Source: a virus (taxonomy: Duplodnaviria > Heunggongvirae > Uroviricota > Caudoviricetes). From it: DNA of 64,000 nucleotides. This document shows positions 1,415-28,208 of the stretch, one piece after another; the first letter of the stretch is position 1; every line of letters begins with the position of its first letter. The DNA lies in the IMG/VR virus record IMGVR_UViG_3300019867_000001, positions 29,244 to 93,243 of that record; one strand, written 5' to 3'. The notes under the pieces were generated by a model, which saw only the letters and a list, made by a program, of their open reading frames with translations, was not told the origin of the DNA and ran no database searches. Both the position numbers and the translations under genes were made by a program.

Positions 1415-1427
1415 ATCAAAATTCCTA

Positions 1428-2397: not shown

Positions 2398-2403
2398 ATC
2401 AAT

Positions 2404-3205: not shown

Positions 3206-3219
3206 TTATATCTCCAATA

Positions 3220-4980: not shown

Positions 4981-6171
4981 TTATGCGTGAAAAACAGGTA
5001 AAATTCCAAGGCTCAATGCAGATGTTGCTTTACGTATCCAAGTACCTGTAGTCGTAACACCAACAGTAGCAGCAGTCAAATCTTCTGGAGTTCCGCCAGT
5101 AGCAGACTTCATATAATCAGCATCTGTTGGGAAAGCAGTAACAGCACCAGCCCAATTATAGCCTTTCGGATGCAATACATAACCCCAACGATACCAGATA
5201 TCAGTTGCGCCACCACCTTTATAAGCACGTCCATCTCTGAAAATTTCAACAGGAGTAGGTACAGTTAAAGGTTCAAATGCAAGTGCATTGGGTAAAACTA
5301 AAAACGAAGTCTTAGTACCAACAAGATCAACTCCAGCACCTGTATTCAGCTTAGTAAGCTGTGCTGAAGAAAGACTTTGATTAGCACGTGTTTGAATCAA
5401 CCTGAACTTACCACCAAAGATAGTATCAAACGTAATATTACCTTCAGATACTTTGGTTTCATCTACCAAATTAGCTGAACGTAAGGAAGCTAATACAGCA
5501 GGACTAGTTACCAGATACAGCCAATCTGGTTCATAGTCTTTGAAACCCATTCCAATCGCATTTAAGAATCCCTCGGCCCTTGCAGCACCAAGCTTACCAG
5601 TGGGGGTATCCGCAGCTACTACAGGCAAGGCAGAGCCAAGGTCAACATAGAAGCCATAACGAGCACTAGTAGGATCATTATCAAATGTTTGCCCACCAAG
5701 GCCTGTAGAACCTGCACCTGTAGCAGCACCATTCAATACTTCAGAAATAGCAATACCTTTCAAAACTGAAAGAATTGCATTATGCTCATCTTGTGCGCGA
5801 GTTTCACCAAAATCACGAGCAATCTTAGCAAGACCATCAACTTGCGTCACAATTTGTTGCATATTAACCTGAGTCGCACCATGCGTACGAACAGTCTTAA
5901 TATACGTAAGATAATCTGAAGAATACGTTTGACCTGTACCTGCAGCAGAATCTGTCAAACTTGCAACGTTAATAACTGCAGTCATCGGTTTAAACCAACG
6001 CATTTGACCGATATATGTTTCAGTATCAGTATTAATTTGTGGGTTTGGACCGACAATACCTGTTCCAGAGAGTTTACGTGCAGTAGTGTAAGCTTCATCG
6101 CTATATGCACCTAAAGCACTTTGAAGAACAAAATTACTTGCACCAGATAAAGTGGTATCAGGAGTAGACAT
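4981..6171 (-). CDS. major capsid protein (HK97 fold)
   Basis: 396 aa directly downstream of a coiled-coil scaffold gene. Size and composition typical of HK97-fold capsid proteins. Confidence 0.6.
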   Translation of the reverse strand: MSTPDTTLSGASNFVLQSALGAYSDEAYTTARKLSGTGIVGPNPQINTDTETYIGQMRWFKPMTAVINVASLTDSAAGTGQTYSSDYLTYIKTVRTHGATQVNMQQIVTQVDGLAKIARDFGETRAQDEHNAILSVLKGIAISEVLNGAATGAGSTGLGGQTFDNDPTSARYGFYVDLGSALPVVAADTPTGKLGAARAEGFLNAIGMGFKDYEPDWLYLVTSPAVLASLRSANLVDETKVSEGNITFDTIFGGKFRLIQTRANQSLSSAQLTKLNTGAGVDLVGTKTSFLVLPNALAFEPLTVPTPVEIFRDGRAYKGGGATDIWYRWGYVLHPKGYNWAGAVTAFPTDADYMKSATGGTPEDLTAATVGVTTTGTWIRKATSALSLGILPVFHA

Positions 6172-6181: not shown

Positions 6182-6907
6182 TTATTGGTTTGAGGTACTC
6201 CTTAATTTGCCTTCTTCCGCTAATTTAAGAACTTCGGCTTGAGACAAATCGAAGAGTGATTTGGGTTTAGTTTTGGTAGATGGCGGTTTCCCATCATCAT
6301 CTTTTGTACCTGCGCCAGAAGAAGATTTCGGTTTAAATAAAAATGATTGTTCTTCACCTTTTGCAAAAGCTTCTACAAAGTCTTTGACTGAAATACCAGA
6401 GCGATGTATCCAAATACCTTTATCATTACGTGTAAGTTGGGCTACAACTTCTCTGTATGCCATTTCAGTAGCAGTATCATTCCTAAAGTTATAACCCTTA
6501 AGTGCATCTCGCACAGCAACATCACGGCTTAGTTCCGTGTTTCGCTTTTCAAGAGCTTCAACTTTTGCTTGTTGCTCAGCAAGCTTTAATTCATATACTT
6601 CTTTATGCTTGCCTTCTTCTTCAAGTCTTTTCATATGTGCTTCACGCTCTTTAGTTTCAAAATCAGCGATCTTGACAAGAGCTTCATCACGAGACTTATA
6701 ACTAGCATCAAGCTTGGCTTTAATACTTGCTAACTTAGTATCGAGTTCCTTTTGAACACGTTCTTCAACGATACTCTTTATTAAGTCTTCATCTTTTGTT
6801 TTATCATCTTTACTTAGCCTTGCTGTAGCTTCTGCACGAGCAACTTCTTCAGCAACTCTAGCAGCTTCTTCATCTTCTACAGCTTTAATTTCTTCTGGTG
6901 TAGCCAT
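6182..6907 (-). CDS. capsid scaffolding protein
   Basis: 241 aa, highly charged with a predicted coiled coil (EE/KK/AE repeats). Immediately upstream of the capsid gene. Confidence 0.55.
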   Translation of the reverse strand: MATPEEIKAVEDEEAARVAEEVARAEATARLSKDDKTKDEDLIKSIVEERVQKELDTKLASIKAKLDASYKSRDEALVKIADFETKEREAHMKRLEEEGKHKEVYELKLAEQQAKVEALEKRNTELSRDVAVRDALKGYNFRNDTATEMAYREVVAQLTRNDKGIWIHRSGISVKDFVEAFAKGEEQSFLFKPKSSSGAGTKDDDGKPPSTKTKPKSLFDLSQAEVLKLAEEGKLRSTSNQ

Positions 6908-6940: not shown

Positions 6941-7711
6941 TCAAACACAGTTTGGGGATTTGCCTAAGAATTTCATTTCATGTTCGTTACAATAACGCCT
7001 AAAAGCAGCTTCATGTAACTCATTGGGTAACATCCCAATACCATGACCTATTGTACCACCTTTCCACGAACCCTTACGTTTTCCTGTTTCTTTAGTAAAA
7101 CGTAAGTCTAAACTACGAGAAATTTTATTTGATTTAAATAATGATAACCATTTAAACCATTTATCTCCAAAAGCCCATTCTCGTTTTTCAATATGAGTTA
7201 TAACTTCTATTTCTTCATTATCAAAATCAAGAAATTTAAATTTTACTTTTGGTATTAAGTCTTCTTTATCTTGTCGAGCTTTCCAATTCATATGCGTATC
7301 TTCAGTATATAGAAATTCACCTTGTAGACCGTAATAACTAAGTCTTATAAATCTCCATTGTGTCCAAGGTAAGAAACAACTCCAATGCTGTTCAGTGCTT
7401 CTACCAAAATAGATACTAAGATGGCCACTACTTAAAAGAAATCCATAATCACGTTTAGTATATGCAATATAGTAATTACGACCTAATCGTTCTATGGTTT
7501 CATCATCCCATTTAGGATATACTGTTTTTGTTTCAGGATAAATAATCAGTGGTAATTTAATTGCAATTCTAAACCAATAAGCATATATTATTAATTTACA
7601 ATCTGGTTTATCGTCCTCACCATTACCAGATGTAATCCAAATACCAATAGGATTCCAGTTTGTTAGCTTTTCTATTTCGATAATAGAATTTTTAAGTGTT
7701 AACGTATTCAT
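6941..7711 (-). CDS. hypothetical protein (Trp-rich)
   Basis: 256-aa ORF between the RNA polymerase genes and the scaffold gene. No recognisable motif. Confidence 0.3.
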   Translation of the reverse strand: MNTLTLKNSIIEIEKLTNWNPIGIWITSGNGEDDKPDCKLIIYAYWFRIAIKLPLIIYPETKTVYPKWDDETIERLGRNYYIAYTKRDYGFLLSSGHLSIYFGRSTEQHWSCFLPWTQWRFIRLSYYGLQGEFLYTEDTHMNWKARQDKEDLIPKVKFKFLDFDNEEIEVITHIEKREWAFGDKWFKWLSLFKSNKISRSLDLRFTKETGKRKGSWKGGTIGHGIGMLPNELHEAAFRRYCNEHEMKFLGKSPNCV

Positions 7712-8145: not shown

Positions 8146-8526
8146 TCAGCCAATGGCATACCAGTACAGATCCTTATTAAAATCCCCTGGGACACTACGA
8201 AGTATATCCTCACGTTTTAAGATATCCTTCTCTGTTATAAGTTTTCCGCCTATTCTAGAACGACCCGCTACAGGAATAAGTCCTATATCAATTGCTTCAT
8301 TAAGGTATCGATTATAGATCTCTCGGGGAAGTCCTCTAGCAAGCATTTCATTTAAGGTATCTAATGTAGTATTAGCTTTTAAAGCATCTGCATAGATTTC
8401 TTTAAGTGCAGCTCTTGCTTTTAACATATCTGCGGTATTAGTTACAAATGCGTCATGTACACTGAAAGTTTGTATGTTATTCTTTTTGCCCCAAAGATGG
8501 AACCTTTTAACCAGAACTGCATCATT
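8146..8526 (-). CDS. single-subunit RNA polymerase, terminal exon (motif C)
   Basis: The frame of ORF 8146..8427 stays open upstream to 8526. It encodes ...FSVHDAFVTNTADMLKARAALKEIYADAL, matching T7 RNAP motif C (IHDSFGTIPADAANLFKAVRETMVDTY). The 3' splice site lies somewhere in 8430-8526. Confidence 0.5.
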   Translation of the reverse strand, partial: NDAVLVKRFHLWGKKNNIQTFSVHDAFVTNTADMLKARAALKEIYADALKANTTLDTLNEMLARGLPREIYNRYLNEAIDIGLIPVAGRSRIGGKLITEKDILKREDILRSVPGDFNKDLYWYAIG

Positions 8527-8796
8527 CAGTGTGTTAAATAGAATTCGTTAGATTCTATCGGTATTGCGCCAAGTATTAATTTGCTTGGCGCGCAACTCCT
8601 GCATGTTACCATGCAGCTCAGACTATCTCTTATAAGAATACTGTCAAGTATTCAAATCTCCATGTTTCAGACCTACTTAGGCCTTACAGGTTTCATAATC
8701 CGTTCTGGATTGTATACCTTAGTCGTTGCACCTTCAAACCTATTCCTAGGTAAGCTTGGCTCAGGATTGTCCTATAACGATAGGAGTTTCCCTGAA
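8527..8796 (-). mobile_element. group I intron-like element (family A, no ORF) in the RNAP gene
   Basis: Non-coding block between RNAP motif-B and motif-C exons. Carries the family core (plus strand): atgcagctcagactat..., tagtcgttgcaccttcaaac, cttggctcaggattgtcc. Boundaries approximate. Confidence 0.45.
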
Positions 8797-9870
8797 TTAA
8801 TGGAGTTTATTCACAGCAAAGTATTTACTGTGATTTGCATTTACAGCATAAGCAGTACGTGCCTTACCAGTATCTGCAATGCTATTAATCTTTCCATCTT
8901 TGTTTATAAGTTCTTCCCACCATGTTGGATCAGTTTTTTGTGCAATTTGAAGTATATTAGTAACCCATTTACCTTCTGCATCTTTATAATTAAGTCTTTC
9001 TTCAAATACTTGAGTAAAGTTCTGTTCTATTATCTTACCATCAAAATTCACACTTGGAACATTGACCCAATTCTTTGGCATTTTATTTGCTATACCTATT
9101 TCTAATTCAAATAGCTTTTTAATTTGAAAAGGTTCTAATTGCAACATCTTAAAACCAGTAAGTCTATCTTTAGGTGCTTCTACACCATAAAGCATTTGAG
9201 CTAAAGTACTATCAGGCTTATACCAACCCATTTGCTTTAATACTTTCTCACTTAAAACTTCATCTTTCCAACCAAGCATTTCACTTATACGTTTAGGTAA
9301 TTTATAACCAGCCTTTTTAGTACCAAGAACTTTAGTTTTAAGGAACTCGACGTAGTCAATATCACTTTCTTTAGGTTTAGCATTAATCATGAAATCTTCA
9401 GCTAGCCTACCGTGAAAACGTGTAAATTCACGTAATACAGGTACTTGAGATTCCAAGTTTTCAGACATAATCTGAGCTATTAATTGGAAGTCTTTGGGTG
9501 TTACTCGTTTCTCATAAGCACCAGACATCTTTTCAACTAAATCTAAAGTTTTGCTGTCTAGAAAGTATAACTCTTCGAGTACATCATCGCCTGGAACTTG
9601 ACCTTTATTAAATATATCTTTTACATCTTGACGTAATGCAAGTAATTCTTGATGCATTTCAGGATCCCATTTTTCGTATCGAGCAGCACGAGCAGAGATT
9701 TCTGAGAGGATTTTATCGCGGTCTTTGGAGTTTACTACAAGTACGCCTTCTTGTTTATCTAAAGCTTTTGCAAGTTTTTGTTCTACATTAAGTATTCCTG
9801 TACGTTTTCCTGCACCATATCGAAATGTTAAATAGAATTCGTTAGATTCTACTAATTTTCTACAAAGCAA
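8797..9870 (-). CDS. single-subunit RNA polymerase, exon with motif B
   Basis: KPDSTLAQMLYGVEAPKDRLTGF aligns with T7 RNAP motif B (KRSVMTLAYGSKEFGF). The ORF ends read into intron sequence on both sides. Confidence 0.55.
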   Translation of the reverse strand: MLCRKLVESNEFYLTFRYGAGKRTGILNVEQKLAKALDKQEGVLVVNSKDRDKILSEISARAARYEKWDPEMHQELLALRQDVKDIFNKGQVPGDDVLEELYFLDSKTLDLVEKMSGAYEKRVTPKDFQLIAQIMSENLESQVPVLREFTRFHGRLAEDFMINAKPKESDIDYVEFLKTKVLGTKKAGYKLPKRISEMLGWKDEVLSEKVLKQMGWYKPDSTLAQMLYGVEAPKDRLTGFKMLQLEPFQIKKLFELEIGIANKMPKNWVNVPSVNFDGKIIEQNFTQVFEERLNYKDAEGKWVTNILQIAQKTDPTWWEELINKDGKINSIADTGKARTAYAVNANHSKYFAVNKLH

Positions 9871-10643
9871 TACTCAGGCATATTAACAGATTTTATTTTA
9901 TAACGTAAAGTTTCTCTGCAAATACCTAAAGCATTTGCAGCTTCCATTGTACTGTTAAATATACCAATCGGTGTTTTTACCTGTTTTCTATTACATGAAA
10001 TAGATCCAATTCTATTACTTTGTTTAGGAGGATCTAAGTAATAATATTCATCAGGATTTTCTAAACAACGCCTTGATACTGTTTTATTTGAAATACCATG
10101 CGCTGTTGATGCTGCACCTACATATGGAAATATACCTAATGGTGTTCTAATACGTCTACTCATACCATGATTCTCTTTACTTGCTGATACCATTTTTCTT
10201 ATACTACCTAAATCTTCAAAACCTTCTGTATGTCTTCTAATAATGTCCTGAAATGTACTTGCTGGAATTTTATGTGCTTCTGCTGCATCAAGATATGTTT
10301 TAAATATACCTAAAGGGGTTTTTACAGCTTTACATAACATTCCATATTTATTCATTGCATTATTTGAAGATCTAATCTCAATTTTATTTAATATATAATT
10401 AGATTTATTAGCACGCATCATAAAAAATGCCATTGCCATTTCAGGGCTGTTATGAATTTTAAATAATAACCAATGTGCTAACAAATGTTGTCTACCTGTT
10501 AAATATATTAAATTTGATTTATCATTATTACCACCTAAAGCTTTAGGTATAATATGATGACGTTCATAACCATTAGTATTAATAGGTCTATTTACAAATC
10601 CATATTTTTGTAATAGATTATTATAGTGTAACTTATAATTCAT
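9852..10643 (-). CDS. HNH homing endonuclease with three NUMOD3-like repeats (intron-encoded)
   Basis: HNH motif ERHHIIPKALGG...NLIYLTGRQH. Three K/RTPLGIF...A(A/E)A...GI repeats. Lies inside the intron between RNAP motif-A and motif-B exons, and overlaps the downstream exon start. Confidence 0.6.
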   Translation of the reverse strand: MNYKLHYNNLLQKYGFVNRPINTNGYERHHIIPKALGGNNDKSNLIYLTGRQHLLAHWLLFKIHNSPEMAMAFFMMRANKSNYILNKIEIRSSNNAMNKYGMLCKAVKTPLGIFKTYLDAAEAHKIPASTFQDIIRRHTEGFEDLGSIRKMVSASKENHGMSRRIRTPLGIFPYVGAASTAHGISNKTVSRRCLENPDEYYYLDPPKQSNRIGSISCNRKQVKTPIGIFNSTMEAANALGICRETLRYKIKSVNMPEYCFVEN

Positions 10644-11217
10644 TTAAGTTTCCTATATTTGCTTTGTTAAAATTCTACATATTCCTATGCAGTCCAGACT
10701 ATATCATCAAGCAAAAGATAAACTTAATTTATCAATTGTTTGTCGGGCGCTTCGATAGGACTTCCTATCTACTTCCTTTCGGAATAGTCGTTGCACCTTA
10801 AAACAAACCATTGTACCATATTTCATGGTACTATAGTAAGTAATCTTGGCTCAGGATTGACCGTTCTGGTGTTCCCCTGAATTCACCCGATTTTCGATGC
10901 ATATTACTATGCAAAGCCTCTATAAGTTAAAGGTGACCATATTTTGCCGTAAATGTTCAAATCTGTTCGTTACTCAGATTCGGTTTAATAATAAACTTCT
11001 ATTAATAAACACCTGCATGTCACCATGCAGCTCAGACTATATCTTCAAACAAAAATTACTTATTTTCGAATGTCCCGCGTTTCGACTGGACTACCAGTCT
11101 ATGGGTTTCATCTTCTGTTCTAGAAGGTATACCCTAGTCGTTGAACCTTCAAACTCATTCCTGAGTAAGCTTGGCTGCTGATTGACTCGTGTGAGCGTTT
11201 CCAGCAATTAACGGGAT
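9871..11217 (-). mobile_element. group I intron-like region with two tandem family-A cores (10681-10920 and 11021-11217) plus HNH ORF
   Basis: Both cores carry cagactatatcatca / tagtcgttg(c/a)accttcaa / cttggctc(ag)gattg blocks. The 100-nt spacer between them has stops in all frames. Could be tandem introns, a twintron, or a degenerate duplicate. Confidence 0.4.
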
Positions 11218-11640
11218 TTAGGCAAGACACAAAGAATTTATCTTGCTTGCCTTACGGAGGTCTTTTTCCGTAAGGCCTAACTTAACATTTAATTCTCGAA
11301 ATCTTGGATCATTAAATGTTAATGCAGCTATCTGATCATATAGACGCTTTTTATGATCAGTAGGGATCACATTACTTAACTCTGCTAACTGTTTGTTTTT
11401 AGTAGTAAGCGCTATGATCTGCGCACCACTACTTGATGCATCTTGCTCTAAGGCTAATGCTGTTTTATATGAATTAAGCTTTTCAAGTGACTTGACAGAG
11501 TAATTACCTTCTAAATAATTATCTATTTTAGCTGTTTCTTGAGCCAAACGTAAGACTTTACCTATATCTTCGGCATCAACATTTGCAAGGAATTTAGAAT
11601 CCAATATTGCGCGTATATCATTTGGTTTACCTTTAAGCAT
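11218..11640 (-). CDS. single-subunit RNA polymerase, exon with motif A
   Basis: MLKGKPNDI... aligns with T7 LAKGKPIGK. ALEQDASSSGAQIIAL aligns with T7 motif A (LAFDGSCSGIQHFSAM). Confidence 0.55.
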   Translation of the reverse strand: MLKGKPNDIRAILDSKFLANVDAEDIGKVLRLAQETAKIDNYLEGNYSVKSLEKLNSYKTALALEQDASSSGAQIIALTTKNKQLAELSNVIPTDHKKRLYDQIAALTFNDPRFRELNVKLGLTEKDLRKASKINSLCLA

Positions 11641-12805
11641 ATGATTGCCAATATCAACTAAGTCTTTACGCCAATATTGAGCTATTTGTTGTCTTCCAGT
11701 GATAGAAAGTGAATTGTATTTTAATTCGTATGAGTCATCTAAGCCGCCTAAGAATGCCCCAATTTGATCTTGAAAATTAGCAAAACCGGGTATTCCAAGA
11801 ATTTTCGATTCTTCAGTATTTAAAAACGGTCTACATTTATGTTCAAGTATATTCGCTAAATATACTCAGGCTTATCAGGCATTTATTAATAATTCTTCCA
11901 AGATCTTCCTTGTTTTATTCCACTAATTGTACCAGAATGAACTTTAAATTTTTTTGCAATATTAGCAAGGCTAATTCCATCAAGAAGCATTTGTCTTATA
12001 ATAGGAATATCTGTTACTGTTAATTTTTTTATAATTCCAACTTTATCAAAAACAGGTCGTTTTATATGTTTCCAACTAATTCCAACACGTATTTTATAAA
12101 TAGAAGAATGTACAATATTATATATTTTTGCTATTTCAATATCTGTACAACCATCTTTAATAAGTTCTATTATATCAAGAACATCAGATTCTTTTAATAT
12201 AGATTCAGGTCTATCCTCACCTTTACAACTACAATTATTAGTAATACCATGTTTATAATTATCAATAAGACTCATCCATTCTAAATTATTATAATTATTA
12301 TTAAGTTTATTACAATCTTTATGATTAACAGTTAAACCTTCAACATACCCATCTACAAAGGCTTTTGCAACAAGTCTATGTACAGTGCGTGTATTTAATT
12401 TACTGTCAAAAAATAAACTTATCTTTAAGTAACCCCTTTCAGTAAGTGATTGACTTAAGATATAATCATATTTATTTTTAACACGTCCTAATGAACTGAT
12501 TTCATACGTTGTATCTTCTATTTGTTTCCATATTTCTTCCATTTTACACCTAAATGTTGTGCCTGATAGCACTTCTGCAATTTCGTTTCCTTATATGCAG
12601 ATCAGACTATATCATCAACCCATAAAGGTTGTCGCGCGCTTCCACTAGGCTTCTAGTGTACAGACTTCATAATCCTTTAACAGGATCGTATGTCTTAGTC
12701 GTTGCACCTTCAAGAGTATTACTACTCAAGCTTGGCTCAGTATTGTCCTTGCGAGGATATCCACTGAATTCACGCGATTTTCGATGTATATTACTATACA
12801 AAGCG
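11641..12805 (-). mobile_element. group I intron-like element (family A) carrying an HNH endonuclease gene
   Basis: Family core at 12590-12805. The T7 alignment runs continuously across the junction (…GETLIS | MLKGKP…), so about 1.17 kb must be removed. Confidence 0.5.
11886..12572 (-). CDS. HNH homing endonuclease (NUMOD4-like N-terminus, C-terminal HTH), intron-encoded
   Basis: EEIWKQIEDTTYEISSLGRVKN resembles NUMOD4. HNH core VNHKDCNKLNNNYNNLEW. C-terminal GISLANIAKKFKVHSGTI looks like a helix-turn-helix. Confidence 0.55.
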   Translation of the reverse strand: MLSGTTFRCKMEEIWKQIEDTTYEISSLGRVKNKYDYILSQSLTERGYLKISLFFDSKLNTRTVHRLVAKAFVDGYVEGLTVNHKDCNKLNNNYNNLEWMSLIDNYKHGITNNCSCKGEDRPESILKESDVLDIIELIKDGCTDIEIAKIYNIVHSSIYKIRVGISWKHIKRPVFDKVGIIKKLTVTDIPIIRQMLLDGISLANIAKKFKVHSGTISGIKQGRSWKNY

Positions 12806-13282
12806 TCAAGAAATTAACGTTTCCCCTGATTGAACACCGATAAGTCCACGTTCATAAATCCTAGCTCTATGATCCAAAAATGGATGATTACTAAAAGCAT
12901 AATTATTCTTTCTTAACCACTCCATCGCCTTAAGTCGTTCATAAGAATCTCCACGTTCAATCATAAACTCACGATAACGATTTAAGTCATTGTAGTATTG
13001 AGCTTTACCTTTATCATCTTGAAAATTAAGCAATTTACCTATAAAATCATGAAATTCAGGGTCTATTTTATACTTAGCATTTGCTGTCCAATTAAGAGCA
13101 TCAGTCATGTCTTTATCTATTAGCTTGGTAGGAAAATTCTTAAAGCTATCTGTTGATGTTAAAGGTATCTGTGTATCTCTGTTTTTATAATCAAAATAAG
13201 TTTTATAGCCTTCACGTATTTTAAGTCTATTCTTATCATCTACTACGCTTACTCTTAATCCTAATTCAATTTTTCGTTGCAA
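12806..13282 (-). CDS. single-subunit RNA polymerase, exon with T/DxxGR motif
   Basis: NNYAFSNHPFLDHRARIYERG aligns with T7 ANHKAIWFPYNMDWRGRVYA. The coding frame stays open upstream into 13283-13450. Confidence 0.55.
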   Translation of the reverse strand: MQRKIELGLRVSVVDDKNRLKIREGYKTYFDYKNRDTQIPLTSTDSFKNFPTKLIDKDMTDALNWTANAKYKIDPEFHDFIGKLLNFQDDKGKAQYYNDLNRYREFMIERGDSYERLKAMEWLRKNNYAFSNHPFLDHRARIYERGLIGVQSGETLIS

Positions 13283-13672
13283 TTTAGAATACTCTTGAAT
13301 TCGAGGATCGACAATTCTAAGATTAACTGAGAATGTGTCGTAGTACGGACCCGTTTTGTTAGATGGTCTTCGTTAAAGATCATCAAATGCTTGCCATTTA
13401 TTTCTCTATGTGTTGTGCTGGCAAGCACTTCTGCAATTTCAAAAATAAACTCATTTAATTATATGCAGACCAGACTATATCATCATCCTATTACTAGGAT
13501 GCTGCGCGCTTTGAGCAGACTTCTGCCCTATGGACTTCATCGTCTGTTCTAGACGGTATGTCCTAGTCGTTGAACCTTCGAACCTGTCCCCAGGTAAGCT
13601 TGGCTGCTGATTGTCCTGAAAGATTTTTTAACGAAAAATCTTATAGGATGTTCCAGCAATTCACGCAGTTAT
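13283..13672 (-). mobile_element. group I intron-like element (family A) with a decayed endonuclease-gene start, between MuF gene and RNAP exon
   Basis: Family core at 13451-13672. Its 3' tail (gaaattgcagaagtgct…aaataaATGgcaagcatTTGA) is homologous to the region preceding the HNH ORF at 12572, but here the ORF stops after 4 codons. The 5' family sequence extends into the last codons of the MuF ORF. Confidence 0.4.
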
Positions 13673-16600
13673 TCAATATACATTACTGTATAAGGCTTCA
13701 TTTAAAAAGTATCTTCTGCCTACTCTACTCTTCATTCGTCGTTTTTGTACACCATAAGTTTCTAATTTATAAATACCCTTGTCATCTGCAACATCCAGAA
13801 GTTTTACGCCTAGTTCAAACCATTCTTTTCGGCTACCTCTATAATTAGCCATATTATAAAGATCACGACCTAAACTAACAGCGAATTGATCTCTATCAGG
13901 CATATCAGCTAATGAAAGCCTATGGGCAAACTTTAAGTAAAATTCTGATAAATCACGGTCTGTTAGACTTAAAAAGTTTTTCTTTAGAGGCAATTTTGGA
14001 TCAATAAAAACCCTACCTAAAACTCCTCTTAACTCTCTTGCAATTTTAGGCGCAGTAGTATTTTCCCAAGTATTTCGCTTTTGTATATTCTCAAGAAAGT
14101 TATCATGTAAATCTTGTAATTGGACTGGTCCTAAAACTGGATCAATGTAATTTTCTTGCTTCAGCTTGAAAAGTAAATTAGCATCTTTGCGTATTTGTGT
14201 TTCAATGTAATCAGACACATTCATTACATCAAATTTCATTTGTCCATTTAGAACAGCTTTTAAATTAGCCCAAGGTATTTTGTTTTCACGTGCTCGTTGA
14301 AATATAATCCTTAAATTATCCGTTATAACAGCACGTTGATTAGTACCCATATGACCATCAAGGTCATCTACAAACTTAAGTATAAAGTCTTTATCTTTAG
14401 GTAGTAATACCTCTGATTCTTCTACTAGTCTTTTAGTATTCTCTAATACCTGCATATTTGGTTGGTAAATCCTTGCATCATCATACCTACCAGTAAAGGG
14501 ATTATACTTCAAATTATCTTCAGTAGGCGGTGAACTTAATACTCTAATTTTAGTATTACGTTTATTATGTAATAATGTACCCCTATAATTAGTAAGCGAA
14601 AGCATTCCATCCAACTCACCATCCTGTAGCAAATAATACTCTTTAAGTGCTTTTTGAAATTCTTTAGATTCTAAAATTTCATCAGGACGTGCTGCACCAA
14701 GTTTAAGAGTATCAAGTTTTTCTTTAGCTAATGCAAATCTACGTGTATCTCCTGGTAAAGCATAACCTGGATCTGTAAGTTTACGGAGTTCCTTAATACC
14801 TATTGAATTGCCTTCATCATTAGTAAATTTATCAAGAGTTAATTGTCCACTTCTGAATACTTCAAGTTTTTTGATATCTCCTAAATGCCTTAACTGAACT
14901 TCTGATGCTTGCCGCGTCAGCCATTCATTATAGGATTCCTTTAATGGAGACTGCCCATCATAAAATGCAATTTGCTTATCAGTTAATCCTTCGAGATTCC
15001 GTTTACGTATTTGGGCTATCCCTTCAAGTTCACCTAGTTGCTCATAGCTTTTTACAATCGGTATAGTAGAGGATCTACAATTACTACCCCAAATTATCTT
15101 ACCATTTCTTTTAGTAAGCAATGTATGCTTATCAGCTAATTCTATATCATAAACTTTGTATAGGCCATCACATTCAACTATAATAGTAGCATCCGTTAAC
15201 CTTCTATATTGACTTCTATTCCAAGCAATATGATAAACTAAATAATTACCATCAATTGTATCTCCATTTTTCTTTATAACAAAACTTGGAAGTCGTTCAT
15301 AAACACTTGCTGAATCCCCAACTTTAATTATAAGTTCACATAAATCTGCCATTAATTGTTTTGAAGTAGTAAAAAATTTTCTTACTAGATTTGAAGTATA
15401 TCCTTCAAAATCAGATTGTTTAACAGAAGTACCATCTCCTAACAAGTATGCTTCAAGAAAAACTAATAAATCACTTTTAGGTAAATTTTTAATTTCTTTT
15501 GGTATATACTTTTCAGTACATTTTCCAAATTTTAATAACCAATTATTTAAATTTTGATCAACAAAACCTAATCCAGTTTGACGATTAGATGGGTTTAATT
15601 CTTTTAATTCTTCTAACATTAATTGTTTATGTGTATACTGCGAAATACAACAATCAATGTAACCTTTATTTTTAATTGATACAGATCCATCCGATAACCA
15701 CCAAGCCATAAATTTACAAAATATAGAAACAGATGGAAATTCAAAATTATTTACAATTATTTTATCTATACTTTTGCCTATCCACTTAGATGATGCAAAC
15801 ATTCTAAAATCAACTTTAGGCGGTATATCTAAAATTGAATTATAATATTTTGGTAAATATTCTTTATAATTGCCTCTATCAACCCTCTTTTGTCCTATGA
15901 AAGGATGATCTGCAGTTACTGCGATGTCGACTGAAAATGCTTTTATAAAAATTATCTCTTCAACTTCTTTTTCAAATTTAGTTATAATTGGTTGCCAAGT
16001 TAAGTCTTCAGTTTCAGGATCTAAAGATAAACATTTTTCATTTATAATTGTATCTTTAATTAATTTAAATCCATTTTCAGTCAATACTTCTGTATCTTCC
16101 AGGTAACAGAAAAAGTGACTGGGCGGGAGATGACTTGTATCACTTATTGGGTACACAGTGCCATCTCGATGAGCACAAAGTGGCGTTGTTCTGCTATCCA
16201 ATACAGCAACATATTGCCATCCTTGTAATGCTTTTTCATTAACTTTATAAACTTCGTGATCTGTTTGAGCGTATACACTTGTAATAGCAGTAGTAACTAA
16301 GCCTTGAGATTGGTTCTTTGTTATTTTAAATATACTACCTTTACGTACATTTAAGGCTATTTCTTCTTCTGTAAGTCCTTCTGCTAATCCTTTACGTATT
16401 AACGATTCAATCCTAATCTTCTCACCTTTAGCAATACTATTCCAGCCTTGAGCTAGAGTTTGATTGCTATAAATTGGACGTGATAAAACTATATCCTCAG
16501 CTATCCTTCGAGTAGGCTTAGAAGTATGCCAAATTTTGCCTAAAGACGCATCTAAACTTTGATATGTATACGAAATTTGATCTCCAACTAAATCAAGCAA

Positions 16601-16870
16601 TGATCGTTTAGTAGTTGTATGTAAAGCATGAGTTGTTCTTGCTAATTCTGCATCTACAGCTTCTCTAAATTTAATAAAACCAGGTCCATTCATTTTAGCT
16701 TTACGTACCAAGTCTTCGATTTTAACTGCATGCCCATCTACTATTAATGATACTTTGCCTTGAACTCTTCGCTCATAAAGTCTTATCATTGCTGATCGAT
16801 CTATTGATTTATCATAAATTTCAGTATTTACATTTATAGCAGTCATACTAATCCTTAATAAAGTAATCAA
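13673..16870 (-). CDS. head morphogenesis protein (Mu F / SPP1 gp7 family) with intein and long C-terminal extension
   Basis: Exteins reconstitute the Mu-F signature ...YVAVLDSRTTPLCAHRDGTVYP...LPPSHFF|CRSS (H.NCRC-like). 1065 aa, including a 343-aa intein and about 470 aa after the MuF domain. Confidence 0.6.
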   Translation of the reverse strand: MITLLRISMTAINVNTEIYDKSIDRSAMIRLYERRVQGKVSLIVDGHAVKIEDLVRKAKMNGPGFIKFREAVDAELARTTHALHTTTKRSLLDLVGDQISYTYQSLDASLGKIWHTSKPTRRIAEDIVLSRPIYSNQTLAQGWNSIAKGEKIRIESLIRKGLAEGLTEEEIALNVRKGSIFKITKNQSQGLVTTAITSVYAQTDHEVYKVNEKALQGWQYVAVLDSRTTPLCAHRDGTVYPISDTSHLPPSHFFCYLEDTEVLTENGFKLIKDTIINEKCLSLDPETEDLTWQPIITKFEKEVEEIIFIKAFSVDIAVTADHPFIGQKRVDRGNYKEYLPKYYNSILDIPPKVDFRMFASSKWIGKSIDKIIVNNFEFPSVSIFCKFMAWWLSDGSVSIKNKGYIDCCISQYTHKQLMLEELKELNPSNRQTGLGFVDQNLNNWLLKFGKCTEKYIPKEIKNLPKSDLLVFLEAYLLGDGTSVKQSDFEGYTSNLVRKFFTTSKQLMADLCELIIKVGDSASVYERLPSFVIKKNGDTIDGNYLVYHIAWNRSQYRRLTDATIIVECDGLYKVYDIELADKHTLLTKRNGKIIWGSNCRSSTIPIVKSYEQLGELEGIAQIRKRNLEGLTDKQIAFYDGQSPLKESYNEWLTRQASEVQLRHLGDIKKLEVFRSGQLTLDKFTNDEGNSIGIKELRKLTDPGYALPGDTRRFALAKEKLDTLKLGAARPDEILESKEFQKALKEYYLLQDGELDGMLSLTNYRGTLLHNKRNTKIRVLSSPPTEDNLKYNPFTGRYDDARIYQPNMQVLENTKRLVEESEVLLPKDKDFILKFVDDLDGHMGTNQRAVITDNLRIIFQRARENKIPWANLKAVLNGQMKFDVMNVSDYIETQIRKDANLLFKLKQENYIDPVLGPVQLQDLHDNFLENIQKRNTWENTTAPKIARELRGVLGRVFIDPKLPLKKNFLSLTDRDLSEFYLKFAHRLSLADMPDRDQFAVSLGRDLYNMANYRGSRKEWFELGVKLLDVADDKGIYKLETYGVQKRRMKSRVGRRYFLNEALYSNVY
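15080..16108 (-). mobile_element. intein with LAGLIDADG homing endonuclease in the MuF protein (residues 255-597)
   Basis: N-terminal block CYLEDTEVLTENG. Two LAGLIDADG motifs (FMAWWLSDGS, LEAYLLGDGTS). C-terminal ...IIWGSN followed by extein Cys. Flanks rejoin to HFF-CRSS. Confidence 0.6.
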
Positions 16871-17187: not shown

Positions 17188-17664
17188 TTACGATTCCTTT
17201 GCAAACTCTCCATGATATTCTTTAACTGCTTCATTACGAGCATTACGAGCTTCTTCTTCAGTGTCAAACAAGCCTAAAGTGTGCCTTTGACCATCAACAG
17301 TTATTCTCGCACGATACTTACCACTAAATAAATCTACACCTTTAATACCTGTAGTATTCGTTTCAGGCATTGATCGATTTTGCATATTTTGTTCGGCAGT
17401 AGCTGGTCGAAGATTCTCAGGTGTATTATTAAGTCTATCTGTATCTTTATGATCTATACGCTCGGGGTAATCATCATTATATAACATATAGATTAAACGA
17501 TGAACTTTATATGTATGCCCTGCAAACTTTACTTGTAAATAACCTTCACTATTAAGCGTACCTACAGGTTGATTCTTTACTATATTAGGCCCATTATTTA
17601 TATTCCAAAATAACTTGCCATTTTTATAATAAAATACTTCACGGACTTGCTTATGGTTAAGCAT
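17188..17664 (-). CDS. HNH-AP2 homing endonuclease (free-standing)
   Basis: HNH core [19 protein letters not shown]2-like GIKGV...[28 protein letters not shown]. Confidence 0.6.
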
Positions 17665-19379
17665 TATTGCAATTGAGCAGGTTGTTTAGATTTCTTTTTA
17701 ACTGGATTTTCTTGTGCATCTACTGCATTCTCTAGATTTCCTTGTTGAGTCATTGCTTTAATATAACTAGGATCAGATAAATTCTTATCAACTATTCCTT
17801 GTTGCATTATAGCAGCATAATCAGCAACTTCAGGTGAAGCACCAGTAGCTAAAATAATATTATCTGTAATAATTTCTTGTTGGCCTTCTCCATCATCATA
17901 ATCTGGTTCAAGAATATCATTATGCTTCATAATAAGTATCCAAATGCTTCTTGGTATTAAGCCTTGTTGATACCATTCAGTAATTAATCTGAGCCAATCT
18001 GCACCTAGTGGAGCTGGGTTAAAATCAGCAGAAAGCATAAATTTAACATCTTTTGCTGTATATTTAGTTCCATAACGCCAGTTTAACATACATGCAATTA
18101 TACTAGCAAATTGATTACTTACTTTAATATTAAAAGTACCAAGTTGCGCTGTCTGTGCTGCATTTCGAATATCAAGTGCTACTCCACTTTGACTTACTTC
18201 TGGAGCAAGCATTCGAAGACCCATTTTAGCCATTTCTTCAAATGCTGCAGCTATACTCCTATCCATATCTTTAAGAGATTCTGTTGGTGTTTCTAATACA
18301 GTTGCAGTATCGCCTTGTTGTAAATGAAGCCATGTACCTAAACCAGCACCAACAATTTCTTTGAATTTATCATCATTCATATCAGAGCATATAACTGGTG
18401 TATATGTCGCTGCACCATAAAGTAAGTGATTACGTCTACTTATTTTATTATACAATGCTATTTCTTTATCGATTAAGGGAATTAAAATAGGCTCTACAGG
18501 TTGAACACTGCCATTAACAGGCCATGCTGGTATGTAATTGAGTCTTTCACCATTCATCATAATATTAGTGATTGTATCAACTAAAATAAAGCCTTGACCA
18601 AAATTAGTTAAAACGCCATAACCATAATTTTGTTGTATTTGACCATTTATTACTGGTATCATTGCGCTTTCATTTCTATTTTGAAATTTACGTATTTGGT
18701 AATATCCATCTACTATTTCATGTACCCATACAGTATCTAGCTGTTTAGCATGAAATTCATCTTTATCTCGTACTGATTCATAATTACGTACTATGACCAT
18801 TATTAAATCTTGGGAACCATCACCGCTAGGATCACCTAAATCCCAATTAATTACACTTTCAGCTTTCCATAATACTGGATAAGGCTTGTACATAAGTAAT
18901 TCTTGCTGAGTTAAATTTTCATTATTTCCAATATTAGGATAATCTAAATATACCCAAGCTCTGCTAGTTTGTACTTCTTCCCATAATGCTCTATCAAGAA
19001 AACTAATAAGTGGTGAACAATCTTGAGCAAATTCATTCATTATCCAATTATAAGCATCTGCAGGGGCATCTTTAGGAAGCACTAATTGAGGTTGTTTTCT
19101 AAGTAATCCACCTACTACTGTTTTGGCGTATTGGGATACTATGCCTGGTAGCTCAGCTTCTGCCTTGTAGAAGTTATACTGTAATTGTGTCATTGAAGGT
19201 GAAAAAGGAATCAATAGATTCTTAAAAGAAAACACATCTAATACAGAATCTAAATCTTTTACAAACCTTTCACCACCACAAACAGCCCTTGATTTACTCC
19301 ATAATGGTTGCATTGATTCATAAACAGTAAGTGGATCAGCTACTGTTTTACCTATACGAGTCTCATTAAAAACTGTCAT
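17664..19379 (-). CDS. portal protein
   Basis: 571 aa immediately upstream of the MuF gene, in the canonical terminase-portal-MuF order. Size typical of portals. Confidence 0.5.
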   Translation of the reverse strand: MTVFNETRIGKTVADPLTVYESMQPLWSKSRAVCGGERFVKDLDSVLDVFSFKNLLIPFSPSMTQLQYNFYKAEAELPGIVSQYAKTVVGGLLRKQPQLVLPKDAPADAYNWIMNEFAQDCSPLISFLDRALWEEVQTSRAWVYLDYPNIGNNENLTQQELLMYKPYPVLWKAESVINWDLGDPSGDGSQDLIMVIVRNYESVRDKDEFHAKQLDTVWVHEIVDGYYQIRKFQNRNESAMIPVINGQIQQNYGYGVLTNFGQGFILVDTITNIMMNGERLNYIPAWPVNGSVQPVEPILIPLIDKEIALYNKISRRNHLLYGAATYTPVICSDMNDDKFKEIVGAGLGTWLHLQQGDTATVLETPTESLKDMDRSIAAAFEEMAKMGLRMLAPEVSQSGVALDIRNAAQTAQLGTFNIKVSNQFASIIACMLNWRYGTKYTAKDVKFMLSADFNPAPLGADWLRLITEWYQQGLIPRSIWILIMKHNDILEPDYDDGEGQQEIITDNIILATGASPEVADYAAIMQQGIVDKNLSDPSYIKAMTQQGNLENAVDAQENPVKKKSKQPAQLQ

Positions 19380-19730: not shown

Positions 19731-22331
19731 TTATAATTGACCAACATATTGATCTAATACGATTACATCCAAAAATGTCCCACTTGGTAAATATAAACGT
19801 TCAAGACGCGTTGTAATAGGCAAAGAAGTAAGTGTAATAGTTTGTATATTATTTATTGTATACGGCGCTTGATTAAATACCCAATTAGTATTATTTCCAC
19901 CATTTGTTGCACCGTAAATAACGCTACCTGCATAAAAAGTATTAGCAGGACTTGCTATGCTATATGAAACATTAGCATGATTGCCAAAATTCAGCTTACC
20001 AGTTCCAGATTTAACTAAAGTATGTGTGGCATTAGTAATCGAACTGATCTTAATTTCTAGACTAAACAGAGCATATCCGTTCCGCGTCCACACTTCGCCG
20101 GTCGTTGAGGATGTGAAGGTGTTGCCGGATACCCAGTCGTTAGGATTGAAATCTACAGCGAGCGTACCGTTTATGCCGTTGTAAATTTGGGCACGATATA
20201 CATCACCAGCACACGGCTGAGTTTGCCCAATGCTAATCTGCGCAACGCTGTCAAAGAAACCAGAACCAACGGATACTGTGACTGTTGCTCCTAATTGAAC
20301 CCAAGTAACGCCATCTTCTGTCGGGCAAGTATAAAATTTCGTGTCACCAGATGATACCTGCCTTGTAACTCGCACCCAATGTAGAGAACCGGCTATAAAC
20401 CCATGCACTACGGTAGAAATCGCACCTACCCCAGAAACTGCGGTGCCAGTCGGATAAATAATAAAGTTTAATTGTCCACTATTCACTCTAAATAAGTAAG
20501 TACGATGACTACCATTATTATCATCTTTGCCAATTAAACATTGTGTGATCGTTGGAGAAGCCCAATTATTAAGCGCAACCTGTACTCTAATATCAATGTC
20601 GCCAAGAATTGCAGAGGTCACACTGTTTGGGGTAGACAGCTGGTTATAGACAAGTACTGGGTCAGTTCGTACAAACTTCACTGCCGCCGGATTGTAAAGA
20701 GGTACGTTCACACTCGCCACGGTCATAGTCGTGCTCGCCGTTAAGCGGATATTTTTGGGGCCGTTGTCGGTTCGGAACTCGTTAAAAGTGTTGCTGCCGG
20801 TGAAGTCGAAGGAGCCTGAGCCTGCGCCTGAGAGCCAGATATTGTTGTAGGTCTTGCCGCCGCCTGCGAAGGTCTTGATGGCTGATGTGGCATCGGTTAG
20901 CTTAGTCGTTCCGCTGTCAGTCACTGTTACACCCGCTGCGGTACTGAGCACTGTTCCACTGCCTGTGATCGCCCTTAGTCCAGTGCGGATAATCGTGCTT
21001 GCATTGGACGAGGTGAAGCTCGCCATCGTGGTATTGAATCCGGCATCGTTCTTAGTGCCATTGGTGACTGTGAATGCGCCATTCGTAATAAAAGCGTCAG
21101 CGAGAGTAAGCGTTCCTCCCGGCATATTCTCTATGACTGGCTGCGTGAATGTGTGGCCTGCACTTGTTAGCGTGACTGAACTGCGGGCACCAAACGTGAG
21201 TGCAGCAGTACCTGAGAGTACACCCGCATTCGTCAAATTCAATGAGCCGTAGAGTGTATTGGCAACAGTTGTATTCAGGATTGGCGAATTGCCTGCCCCA
21301 GTGAAGTTGATGTTTTTTCCTAGTCTCGGCATATCCATCGTGACCGTTCTGCCAGCGATGAAGGCGTTCGGAACATCTACATCATCCTGTGGCAGCGGTA
21401 CGCGAGAAGTCCAGCCATGCGTGCTCCAAGCGAATGATGCGGTTCCTGTAGCAGTCTGCTTGACTGAAGCAGCGAATGTGATATTAGAGTTTCCGCCACA
21501 ATCTCCTAAGTTGCCTGATGTAGCGACCCACGTCCCGCCTGCACCGGCAGCGGTGATGTCCATAAAGTCACAGTTGGTGAGGATTGGGGGATTAGTGCAA
21601 GTGATGGTACGTGGCGTGCCTACTGATAAGACATACGCCGTGGCTGCTTGTACCAATACGGGCATAGTAGGGCTGGAGCCAGAAATTGTTAGAAAATGCG
21701 TGACAGCAATATCATTGTTAAACGCATTTATACAATTTGCAACATTAGTACCAGGAAACACAAGGTCATAGAAGCTGAACGCGCCACCGATGATCGTGCC
21801 GGCGGGGCGATCCAAAGTCATCTTCTTTCCGTTCGGATCAAAACTGGCCGTAGCGATAAGGCTAAAAACGGAGGGATTCAACGTCCAGTCACCCATTAAC
21901 TTGTATGTGGCAGCCCCGTTTAAGTTGACGGTACTACCAAAAGTAAAATCCAATACCTCGTTAGGTGTAATCGTTTGAATGCCAGAAGGTGCAAGGAATT
22001 GCAAAGTTCCGTTGTATTTGCCTGAAGCACCTACATCCATCCCTGCTAACAACTTCAATGAGCCATAACAGTTAATTGATCCACTACCCACCAGCGTAAT
22101 CGTCCCACCTGCGCCATCCCCCGGCTTGGCGTCGAACATCAGGTCACGGCAATTGAACGTCACATCTACGGTAACTGTGTAGCCGGCGTTACTGGTATTG
22201 CTCAGACCATCAAAGTGTGCATCAAGAACAGACGTAGGCAAGTTGCCAGCGCCTGGCGCACCGCCTGACGTAGCCGCCCAATGATTCGCGGCGTCACTGG
22301 TATTGCCCGTACCGTTGACCCAGAAGCTCAT
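19731..22331 (-). CDS. large Gly/Thr/Ser/Asn-rich protein, putative tail fibre/receptor-binding protein (GC-rich island)
   Basis: 866 aa, beta-rich and low in charged residues, with a C-terminal lectin/LamG-like region. Local GC is clearly higher than the flanks. Confidence 0.4.
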   Translation of the reverse strand: MSFWVNGTGNTSDAANHWAATSGGAPGAGNLPTSVLDAHFDGLSNTSNAGYTVTVDVTFNCRDLMFDAKPGDGAGGTITLVGSGSINCYGSLKLLAGMDVGASGKYNGTLQFLAPSGIQTITPNEVLDFTFGSTVNLNGAATYKLMGDWTLNPSVFSLIATASFDPNGKKMTLDRPAGTIIGGAFSFYDLVFPGTNVANCINAFNNDIAVTHFLTISGSSPTMPVLVQAATAYVLSVGTPRTITCTNPPILTNCDFMDITAAGAGGTWVATSGNLGDCGGNSNITFAASVKQTATGTASFAWSTHGWTSRVPLPQDDVDVPNAFIAGRTVTMDMPRLGKNINFTGAGNSPILNTTVANTLYGSLNLTNAGVLSGTAALTFGARSSVTLTSAGHTFTQPVIENMPGGTLTLADAFITNGAFTVTNGTKNDAGFNTTMASFTSSNASTIIRTGLRAITGSGTVLSTAAGVTVTDSGTTKLTDATSAIKTFAGGGKTYNNIWLSGAGSGSFDFTGSNTFNEFRTDNGPKNIRLTASTTMTVASVNVPLYNPAAVKFVRTDPVLVYNQLSTPNSVTSAILGDIDIRVQVALNNWASPTITQCLIGKDDNNGSHRTYLFRVNSGQLNFIIYPTGTAVSGVGAISTVVHGFIAGSLHWVRVTRQVSSGDTKFYTCPTEDGVTWVQLGATVTVSVGSGFFDSVAQISIGQTQPCAGDVYRAQIYNGINGTLAVDFNPNDWVSGNTFTSSTTGEVWTRNGYALFSLEIKISSITNATHTLVKSGTGKLNFGNHANVSYSIASPANTFYAGSVIYGATNGGNNTNWVFNQAPYTINNIQTITLTSLPITTRLERLYLPSGTFLDVIVLDQYVGQL

Positions 22332-27127: not shown

Positions 27128-27160
27128 AGAATTCTTAGTTTACACAGAAATACTGTTAAT

Positions 27161-27262: not shown

Positions 27263-27344
27263 ATTTATTATTCTAAGTATAAACCACTATTATATAAAAT
27301 TTAATAGTATTATGTTTCGTTTTATTATAATATTATGTTTTATT

Positions 27345-28171: not shown

Positions 28172-28208
28172 TTATTATAATTTAAAATATTATACAACTA
28201 TTTTACAT

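Follow-up and report, generated by a model that had tools for sequence, protein, structure and literature searches.

The DNA analysed here is a stretch of 64,000 nt (the window) from the tailed phage record IMGVR_UViG_3300019867_000001 of IMG/VR (Caudoviricetes; positions 29,244–93,243 of the record). Read from its sequence, the segment at nt 8146–16846 on the minus strand is, close to certainly, a single gene of six exons, five group I introns and one intein, and its predicted product joins an N-terminal MuF head-morphogenesis domain to a C-terminal, single-subunit RNA polymerase (RNAP) of the T7 lineage. The role that this protein probably plays is that of an RNAP carried in the phage head, injected with the DNA and used to transcribe the first genes, before a second phage RNAP takes over; delivery in the virion is itself considered likely. 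An earlier note on the same DNA, written from the letters and a list of their open reading frames (ORFs), had thought a spliced fusion of this kind conceivable. What the note described is found at the stated coordinates, well above chance expectation. The sequence comparisons described below strongly favour the proposed fusion, revise several of its details and place the polymerase among the known virion-carried enzymes.

Structure of the Split Gene

Before splicing, the region reads as a 1065-aa MuF ORF (nt 16870–13673) followed by a 5.5 kb stretch of short ORFs. A splice model was read from the sequence, in which each 5' splice site was set after the U that pairs with a G in the P1 helix and each 3' site after a G that keeps the frame. 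When the exons are joined in this way they give 5664 nt, a multiple of three, with no frameshift or internal stop and a sole, terminal stop codon; the predicted precursor is 1887 aa with the intein, and the mature protein 1544 aa. The start codon is the ATG at nt 16846, which is preceded by AAGGA and agrees with the N-termini of homologs. A first splice model was also in frame but left gaps of 24 aa and 1 aa against the homologs; two of its junctions were wrong and were corrected.

The five group I introns (RF00028) were detected on the minus strand by an Rfam scan, with scores of 66.9–97.8 bits against a gathering score of 50 and cores at nt 13716–13451, 12826–12583, 11323–11013, 10939–10675 and 8836–8599. 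All of them follow a U paired with G in P1, and all terminate in G. A scan of the whole window at the gathering threshold misses introns, and shorter scans recover more.

Exon 1 (nt 13706–16846) specifies the MuF domain and the intein, followed by 458 aa of helical sequence that run on into the RNAP. Intron 1 (nt 13352–13705; 354 nt; 71.7 bits), which is without an intact endonuclease gene, separates the MuF/N-terminal part from the remaining RNAP. Its P1 is CUUU/GAAG, with the U.G pair at the 5' splice site, and its last base is G; the predicted ligated junction, ACTTT/GGTCC (extended, GATACTTT / GGTCCGTA), gives YF/GPYYD in agreement with homologs. An intron had previously been proposed at nt 13283–13672, with a conserved 5' sequence of its family extending into the region of the MuF stop codon. 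An intron does lie at this place, with its 5' splice site 11 codons ahead of that stop codon, but its true span is nt 13705–13352. The last 24 codons of the proposed intron are exon, GPYYDTFSVNLRIVDPRIQEYSKL, and are conserved in all homologs.

Exon 2 (nt 12816–13351) carries the T/DxxGR-type motif LDHRARIY (nt 12877–12854). It is followed by intron 2 (nt 11834–12815; 982 nt; 66.9 bits; P1 CGUU/GACG), which contains a homing-endonuclease ORF (nt 12572–11886) with NUMOD4, HNH_3 and HTH domains, and the predicted junction ACGTT/TAGAC (extended, GAAACGTT / TAGACCGT) gives GETF/RPFLNT, again as in homologs. Exon 3 (nt 11240–11833) includes motif A, EQDASSSGAQ (nt 11448–11419), and the start of motif B, DLRKASK. 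Intron 3 (nt 10948–11239; 292 nt; 87.0 bits) has no ORF, and its P1 is GCAAGAU/GUCUUGC with the U.G pair at the splice site. Exon 4 is a mini-exon of 18 nt (nt 10930–10947) that specifies the middle of motif B, (M)QNMVT(L), and is separated by intron 4 (nt 9821–10929; 1109 nt; 97.8 bits; P1 CCUU/GAGG) from exon 5. Intron 4 also contains a homing-endonuclease ORF (nt 10643–9852), with HNH and NUMOD1 domains. Exon 5 (nt 8827–9820) runs from the YGAG of motif B through the fingers region to NANHS and aligns to homologs over its whole length. Intron 5 (nt 8527–8826; 300 nt; 77.2 bits; P1 CACAGU/GCUGUG) has no ORF, its predicted ligated junction is ACAGT/AATGA (extended, ATCACAGT / AATGATGC), and exon 6 (nt 8146–8526) carries motif C, SVHDAF (nt 8463–8446), the C-terminus and the stop codon.

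Motif B, RKASKMQNMVTLYGAG, is therefore built from exon 3, the mini-exon and exon 5, with the predicted junctions AAGAT/GCAAAATATGGTCACCTT/ATATG (extended, GCAAGAT / GCAAAATATGGTCACCTT / ATATGGTG). The 18-nt exon at nt 10947–10930 is the sole choice that yields this motif, which is gap-free against the family consensus RKAAKAQNMVTFYGAG and also aligns with T7 R627/K631/Y639/G640. The exon list of the earlier note had passed over the mini-exon between its two introns, and the exon coordinates given there were the limits of ORFs rather than of exons; exons 2 and 3 begin further upstream.

An identical 25-nt element, AGAATCTAACGAATTCTATTTAACA, which forms a small hairpin, is found at nt 9850–9826 and 8556–8532 (minus strand). 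In introns 4 and 5 alike it directly precedes the 3' splice site; the cores of the two introns are otherwise only about 60% identical.

The intein (nt 15080–16108, minus strand; 343 aa) is an in-frame insertion between HFF and CRSST, inside the conserved MuF motif LPPxHxx/CRS. It starts with Cys (C...TADH..., a TxxH motif), has a LAGLIDADG-type endonuclease region with two LAGLIDADG-like motifs, and ends in ...GSN followed by a +1 Cys. The profile scores of LAGLIDADG_3 (E 6e-4; 20.4 against 22.5 bits) and PT-HINT (E 0.003; 18.3 against 27.7 bits) are below their cut-offs, and it is by its layout that the insertion is taken to be an intein. A tail of roughly 470 aa had been noted after the MuF domain; the tail is indeed long, but the ORF also holds the intein, and the part that follows it is 458 aa.

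Uninterrupted Homologs

The spliced, intein-free product was compared with 5.8 billion protein clusters, which returned 331 relatives. The best 120 of the 331 are single ORFs, nearly all about 1490–1570 aa in length and 57–66% identical to the query, most of them with 100% query coverage. According to precomputed annotation, both PF04233 (MuF) and PF00940 (RNA_pol) are present in 118 of the 120, and PF04233 alone in the other two. In an alignment of the product with these homologs (121 sequences), 13 residues around each junction were examined. The junction residues fill the 13 columns. Around the intein and four of the introns every homolog is free of gaps; at the remaining intron, between exons 5 and 6, a gap occurs in 1 of 120. 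The intein is absent from all 120, in which the flanking residues adjoin without a gap, and the identity of the exons to the homologs is even along the gene, at about 60–69%. Such gap-free colinearity with single-ORF proteins indicates that the fusion is the ancestral, normal state and that the window holds an interrupted copy, much as the spliced MuF–RNAP fusion had been envisaged. No close isolate is apparent, since the sole match in a megablast search of the region against phages was 84 bp, to a Vibrio phage.

The heavy insertion load of five introns and an intein could be taken as a sign that the gene is decaying in this phage, that some intron or intein splicing fails, and that only a truncated MuF protein ending at the stop at nt 13673 is made. 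The P1 helix of intron 1, at 4 bp, the atypical penultimate residue of the intein and a stop codon 11 codons into intron 1 would all fit such a state. Decay is nevertheless highly improbable, as the 5664 nt of exon sequence are free of frameshifts and internal stops, all catalytic residues are intact, the five intron cores all score above the Rfam gathering threshold, and exon identity to the homologs is uniform.

Among the relatives is a 765-aa ORF from another metagenome (P0123), which begins at the site equivalent to that of intron 1 (at YFGPYYD) and halts at motif C (IHD/RICCV, then a stop). From these start and stop positions, introns may be present in related phages where intron 1 lies here and also at a second place, within motif C. 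A number of other short representatives (365–780 aa) resemble exon ORFs.

Identity of the Polymerase Domain

The predicted product comprises an N-terminal MuF/SPP1-gp7 region of about 330 aa, about 370 helical residues, and a C-terminal T7-like RNAP of about 850 aa. The MuF domain is recognised in ORF 13673–16870 by PF04233 (45.9 bits; cut-off 29.6) and by phrog_241, head morphogenesis (5.7e-12). On the spliced product, PF00940 reaches 40.9 bits (cut-off 22; E 1.5e-10) and spans motifs A and B, and phrog_414, 'RNA polymerase', is matched at 3.5e-15.

The motifs occur in the order seen in T7-like RNAPs, that is, DxRxR, the Asp of motif A, the R/K/Y/G of motif B, HSxD, and the HD of motif C. Their catalytic residues, D864/R866/R868, D1014, R1076/K1080/Y1088/G1089, H1417/D1420 and H1442/D1443 (in T7, D421/R423/R425, D537, R627/K631/Y639/G640, H784/D787 and H811/D812), are invariant in all 121 sequences, as is Y870. 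The invariant set includes the ribonucleotide-selecting residues, equivalents of T7 Y639 and H784. LDHRARIY aligns to T7 DWRGRVY, and the motif C region to T7 IHDSF. The T/DxxGR-like motif and motifs A and C had been correctly picked out in the earlier note, and their key residues are among those just listed. The motif B proposed there, STLAQMLYG, sits in a family-specific insertion of the fingers and is unconserved; in the true motif, RKASKMQNMVTLYGAG, RKASK...YGAG is invariant.

A single-sequence search of PDB gave weak matches, the best of which were all mitochondrial and T7 RNAPs, with QDASSSGAQ aligned to QDGSCNGLQ, RKASKMQNMVTLYG to RKVVKQTVMTVVYG, NHSND to IHSLD and SVHDAF to SVHDCY. 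A profile made from eight close homologs did not find T7 RNAP in PDB, a more diverse alignment being needed. With the family profile A4, which includes distant members, T7 RNAP was the top PDB match (E 5.7e-7), and hhalign against T7 RNAP returned a probability of 97% (E 1.2e-10) over T7 residues 397–877, the whole polymerase domain. The fold was modelled on P0123, the ORF of a related split gene that is 58% identical to mature residues 695–1447 (pLDDT 78.8, pTM 0.71), and the model has the right-hand polymerase fold of T7 and mitochondrial RNAPs. A Foldseek search of PDB with this model returned T7 and mitochondrial RNAPs for all of the top 50 matches (best E 3.6e-12). In structure comparisons the model scored 19.7 with yeast mitochondrial RNAP, 17.9 with T7 RNAP and 14.0 with human mitochondrial RNAP, followed by the mini-virion RNAP (mini-vRNAP) of phage N4 (11.8), N4 RNAPII (9.9) and the family A DNA polymerases (about 9–10). 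Counted from the motif positions, the fingers region is about 180 aa longer than that of T7 RNAP. The C-terminal half is thus identified, by profile, motif and predicted fold, as a diverged member of the T7-like lineage, apparently complete and with its catalytic site intact. Where a T7/N4-type enzyme had been suggested before, the T7 side of that description is borne out by the Pfam match above cut-off, the PDB profile match and the hhalign result.

Gene Neighbourhood and Cultured Relatives

Every gene of the window is on the minus strand. Upstream of the fusion gene is the portal protein gene (nt 17664–19379; phrog_145 portal, 5e-49), and between the two are an HNH/AP2 endonuclease gene and two small ORFs. 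Downstream are a putative scaffold gene (nt 6182–6907), assigned from position and composition and without a profile match, and the major capsid protein gene (nt 4981–6171; phrog_247 major head protein, 2e-18). The gene directly after the polymerase gene, at nt 6941–7711 (minus strand) within the head module, matches Pfam Acb3, a CBASS inhibitor (3e-64). The order portal, fusion, scaffold and capsid is kept in the window, in a 74-kb metagenome contig (L003) and in the roseophage DSS3_VP1. The earlier note had placed the polymerase gene between the MuF gene and the scaffold/capsid genes; the place of the fusion, with the portal on one side and scaffold/capsid on the other, recurs in these other genomes. 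The 74-kb contig carries, in sequence, a portal gene, a small ORF, the fusion (1534 aa), a putative scaffold gene and a capsid gene, with a 2463-aa tape measure protein further on. In a scan of GTDB genomes the fusion was found in one metagenome-assembled genome, on a 74-kb contig, which is of phage size, and on a 3.2-kb contig; the same scan gave no prophage copies and no reliable host.

Four of 50,697 phage records match at 80% or more of the protein, namely EBPR siphovirus 1 (54% identity), DSS3_PM1 and DSS3_VP1 (two accessions; about 30%). The full-length homologs of DSS3_VP1 and DSS3_PM1, which are roseophages of the Naomviridae, are 30% identical over 89–94% coverage, share the same MuF and RNA_pol architecture and in both phages are encoded without interruption. 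In DSS3_VP1 the homolog is gp108 (YP_010105321), a lone, uninterrupted ORF of 1463 aa that is annotated 'head morphogenesis' and lies between the portal and major head protein genes. EBPR siphovirus 1 also has this architecture and gene position, in gp47 and gp49. Its copy is interrupted within motif B (NMV/TFYGAG) by an HNH-encoding group I intron, at a position nearly identical to that of intron 4. In none of these three phages is the homolog itself recorded as an RNA polymerase, and in the public sources queried the homologs are named just 'SPP1 gp7 family head morphogenesis protein' or similar.

A Second RNA Polymerase and Retention of the Fusion

DSS3_VP1 also specifies a canonical T7-like RNAP, gp080, of 732 aa. 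It shares 29% identity with T7 RNAP across 667 aa, and its last residues are DFAFS. A counterpart was found in a further locus (L007) of the same phage as the window, which is 100% identical to nt 61302–64000 of the window and reaches 9.3 kb past the window end. At nt 89–3385 of this locus, 5.9–9.2 kb beyond position 64000 and upstream of a DNA polymerase A gene, is a homolog of gp080, with segments 34–40% identical, that ends in EYAFA. This gene is likewise interrupted at motifs A and B, by three group I introns (63.9–83 bits) together with two HNH genes; these introns were missed by a 4-kb Rfam scan and recovered by a 2.3-kb scan. Each of the two genomes checked encodes a pair of single-subunit RNAPs: a MuF-fused enzyme in the head module and another that stands alone in the replication/early region.

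The persistence of the fusion was assessed with the exon 5 (fingers) segment, which was used as query against 1.84 billion representatives clustered at 50% identity. It matched 37 clusters, of which all full-length ones are 1472–1890 aa, with the match starting near aa 1060–1310, and no stand-alone version of the segment was seen among the 1.84 billion representatives. The short clusters that match appear to be fragments, or else exon ORFs from split genes. Six distant members, at 26–34% identity, all have both MuF and RNA_pol domains. Because the fusion is retained down to about 26–34% identity and stand-alone copies are lacking in this library, it can be argued that the two halves work as one protein.

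These observations bear on whether the polymerase leaves the producing cell at all. It might be made late and act there, as a late-gene polymerase or after proteolytic release, with the MuF part alone entering capsids; the position of the gene in a late structural module is compatible with this, and cleavage could take place in the long helical linker. That all full-length relatives strictly retain the fusion would be hard to explain if the halves worked apart, and each genome checked already has a separate RNAP for intracellular use. An undelivered polymerase is, on balance, distinctly unlikely.

Proposed Role in Infection

Delivery of the fusion would proceed as follows. Removal of the five introns from the mRNA and of the intein from the protein would give the mature 1544-aa product, a few copies of which would be brought by the MuF domain into the procapsid, beside the portal. 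At infection the polymerase would exit the head with the DNA and transcribe the first phage genes independently of the host RNA polymerase. These early genes would include that of the second, canonical T7-like RNAP, to which later transcription would then pass. The scheme amounts to an N4-like programme of two polymerases, with another polymerase lineage and another delivery module. Packaging in a few copies and exit with the DNA are proposed because MuF proteins are components of the head interior; a survey of these proteins describes them as head components, often with enzymatic or effector domains whose delivery into the host is predicted (PMC5512222). For the second half of the scheme phage P23-45 offers a precedent established by experiment: its virion RNAP, fused to a structural protein, transcribes the gene of a second RNAP (PMC10770324).

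Transcription-driven genome entry is known for T7 and N4. A packaged fusion could accordingly have as its main job the entry of the genome by transcription, or the synthesis of primers for a first round of replication, while gene expression is left to the second RNAP or that of the host. The architecture and synteny agree equally with this role and with early transcription, and a separate canonical RNAP could handle most transcription. A coupling of transcription to DNA translocation is also put forward by the authors of the P23-45 study (PMC10770324). Entry or priming does not, however, exclude early transcription, and the second RNAP gene itself needs to be transcribed beforehand. The invariance of the Y639 and H784 equivalents is as expected of a real RNA-synthesising enzyme. 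That genome entry or priming is the principal function is regarded as rather unlikely.

Several points weigh against an injected early polymerase. It is solely the MuF domain and the position of the gene that lead us to infer packaging and injection, and the paper describing the Naomviridae includes no virion proteomics and makes no mention of an RNAP. The linker between MuF and polymerase is not significantly similar in sequence to the N-terminal domain of T7 RNAP by hhalign, a comparison that the earlier note had suggested for the MuF tail, and its model is of low confidence; for these reasons promoter recognition is unaccounted for. No repeated promoter-like motif was found in the 64-kb window, the search bringing up only intron cores and endonuclease paralogs. 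With regard to maturation, the P1 helix of intron 1 is just 4 bp, the penultimate His of the intein is replaced by Ser (...GSN/C), and its Hint and LAGLIDADG profile matches are sub-threshold. Taken with these points, early transcription by an injected MuF–RNAP is still the reading that we favour.

Comparison with Known Polymerases and MuF Proteins

The T7-like RNAPs of PF00940, such as T7 gene 1 and mitochondrial RNAP, share the fold of the fusion polymerase and its catalytic motifs, which follow one another in an identical order. The fusion differs from them in being only about 14–16% identical in structural alignment, in its fingers insertion of about 180 aa, in its C-terminus, which is WYxxG and not FAFA, and in a T7-type N-terminal domain that is undetectable by sequence; it also stands behind a capsid protein and is encoded in the structural module.

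In predicted role the closest counterpart is N4 gp50, a capsid-carried, injected single-subunit RNAP that is followed by a second phage RNAP and is likewise encoded among virion genes. No relationship between the two proteins is detectable by sequence. Profile A4 against gp50 residues 998–2103, the mini-vRNAP, gave an hhalign probability of 0.08 (E 0.63), and the N4 mini-vRNAP is structurally more distant from the fusion polymerase than T7 or mitochondrial RNAP is. The injection and encapsidation regions of the N4 type, including the metallopeptidase, were not detected in the fusion, which has just MuF and RNA_pol in 1544 aa against the 3500 aa of gp50. The parallel that had been drawn with N4 and crAss-like phages consequently holds for function and fails for evolutionary origin, as the N4 profile comparison is negative and the fold is not of the two-barrel type.

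The crAss-like vRNAPs are of this two-barrel fold (PMC10770324). The double-psi beta-barrel and DxDxD-type signature (e.g. DFDGD) of two-barrel vRNAPs, represented by phi14:2 gp66 of the crAss-like phages and P23-45 gp96, were not found in the fusion. The Thermus phage P23-45 is a siphovirus, and its gp96, a fusion of a vRNAP with the tape measure protein, exits the virion and transcribes the pre-early genes, including the gene of a second, non-virion RNAP (PMC10770324). This enzyme is of the two-barrel kind, akin to cellular RNAPs, and travels in the tail, whereas the MuF fusion has a T7-like fold and would be carried in the head. The 2024 paper on this phage lists virion RNAP fusions in crAss-like and N4-related phages besides its own tape measure protein fusion (PMC10770324).

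The MuF-cargo ('polyvalent') proteins and SPP1 gp7 have the same N-terminal MuF head domain as the fusion, followed in the cargo proteins by an enzymatic domain that is expected to be delivered. In the accessible portion of the 2017 survey of these proteins, the cargo list consists of toxin and effector-type domains, with RNA polymerase not among them, and virion RNAP modules are described as confined to N4-like phages and prophages (PMC5512222). By its domain and profile matches, the fusion belongs to PF00940 and PF04233 and is assigned neither to the N4 vRNAP family nor to the two-barrel vRNAPs. What would be new is a virion RNAP of a different polymerase lineage on a different carrier. A full-text literature search, with subscription journals mostly outside its coverage, found no description of a MuF–RNAP fusion, and an earlier description is possible.

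Selfish Elements and Other Features of the Window

With five group I introns, an intein and an 18-nt exon in the most conserved motif of the polymerase, all in one gene, the locus is a case of extreme invasion. The gene of the terminase large subunit holds a sixth group I intron of the window (nt 24365–25159, minus strand; 68.1 bits), which carries an ORF of the endonuclease VII type (nt 24365–24853); this intron was missed by the whole-window Rfam scan and found in a shorter scan. About ten paralogous, free-standing endonuclease genes are scattered over the genome on the minus strand, in DNA blocks that are 60–83% identical. Those at nt 17188–17664, 25921–26742 and 62757–63275 were confirmed by Pfam (HNH_3 or HNH_3/AP2), and further copies, recognised by DNA similarity alone, are near nt 29227, 37108, 38736, 47753, 56758 and 61049. 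In total the phage carries at least nine introns, the intein and about ten endonuclease genes, an unusually heavy selfish load that may account for the length of its metagenome contig, 104 kb against about 70–85 kb in relatives.

A short homolog of adenylosuccinate synthetase (nt 36068–37108, minus strand; 346 aa) matches a PHROG family of PurZ-type enzymes, and near it is a gene for an HD metal-dependent phosphohydrolase (nt 39316–39984, minus strand). Together these genes hint at a 2-aminoadenine (Z) genome. In the DNA of the Naomviridae phages DSS3_VP1 and DSS3_PM1, dU replaces dT.

A non-coding block of 2.1 kb (nt 27130–29230; GC about 0.20) has a strong terminator-like hairpin and T-run near nt 28830–28880, about 11 tandem units of 32 nt (nt 28205–28560) and about 20 tandem units of 24 nt (nt 27300–27793), with the same 124-nt element after each array (nt 27153–27276 and 28062–28185). 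It could be an origin, an array of promoters or binding sites, or a genome end. Adjoining the portal gene is an 866-aa ORF (nt 19731–22331, minus strand) with a GC of about 0.48–0.50, compared to about 0.32 for the genome; it has no Pfam or PHROG match and may be a recent foreign acquisition. The large subunit of ribonucleotide reductase is apparently split (nt 49988–53293, minus strand), as the N-terminal 250 aa of ORF 51104–53293 match this protein and ORF 49988–50914 matches its C-terminal part. Since no group I intron was found at this locus, the split may be due to an intein or another insertion.

Conclusions

The transcription strategy of these phages goes unrecognised in current annotation. 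The broader proposal that a large, mostly uncultured clade of tailed phages with genomes of about 70–100 kb, including the Naomviridae, injects a T7-lineage RNAP by means of MuF, as an independent invention of the N4 strategy, stands for us evenly poised between acceptance and doubt. Delivery of this kind may be linked to genomes that are poorly handled by host polymerases or defences, with the dU-DNA of the Naomviridae and the hint of 2-aminoadenine DNA in the present phage as cases to consider. As DSS3_VP1 and DSS3_PM1 are cultured and grow on Ruegeria pomeroyi, the question is open to direct testing. Alongside the N4-like, crAss-like and P23-45 tape measure systems, a T7-lineage enzyme carried by MuF would be a further, independently evolved route, and the toxins and effectors listed as MuF cargo would be joined by a core enzyme of information processing. 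If the proposal is true, transcription in the clade would be independent of the host from the first second of infection.

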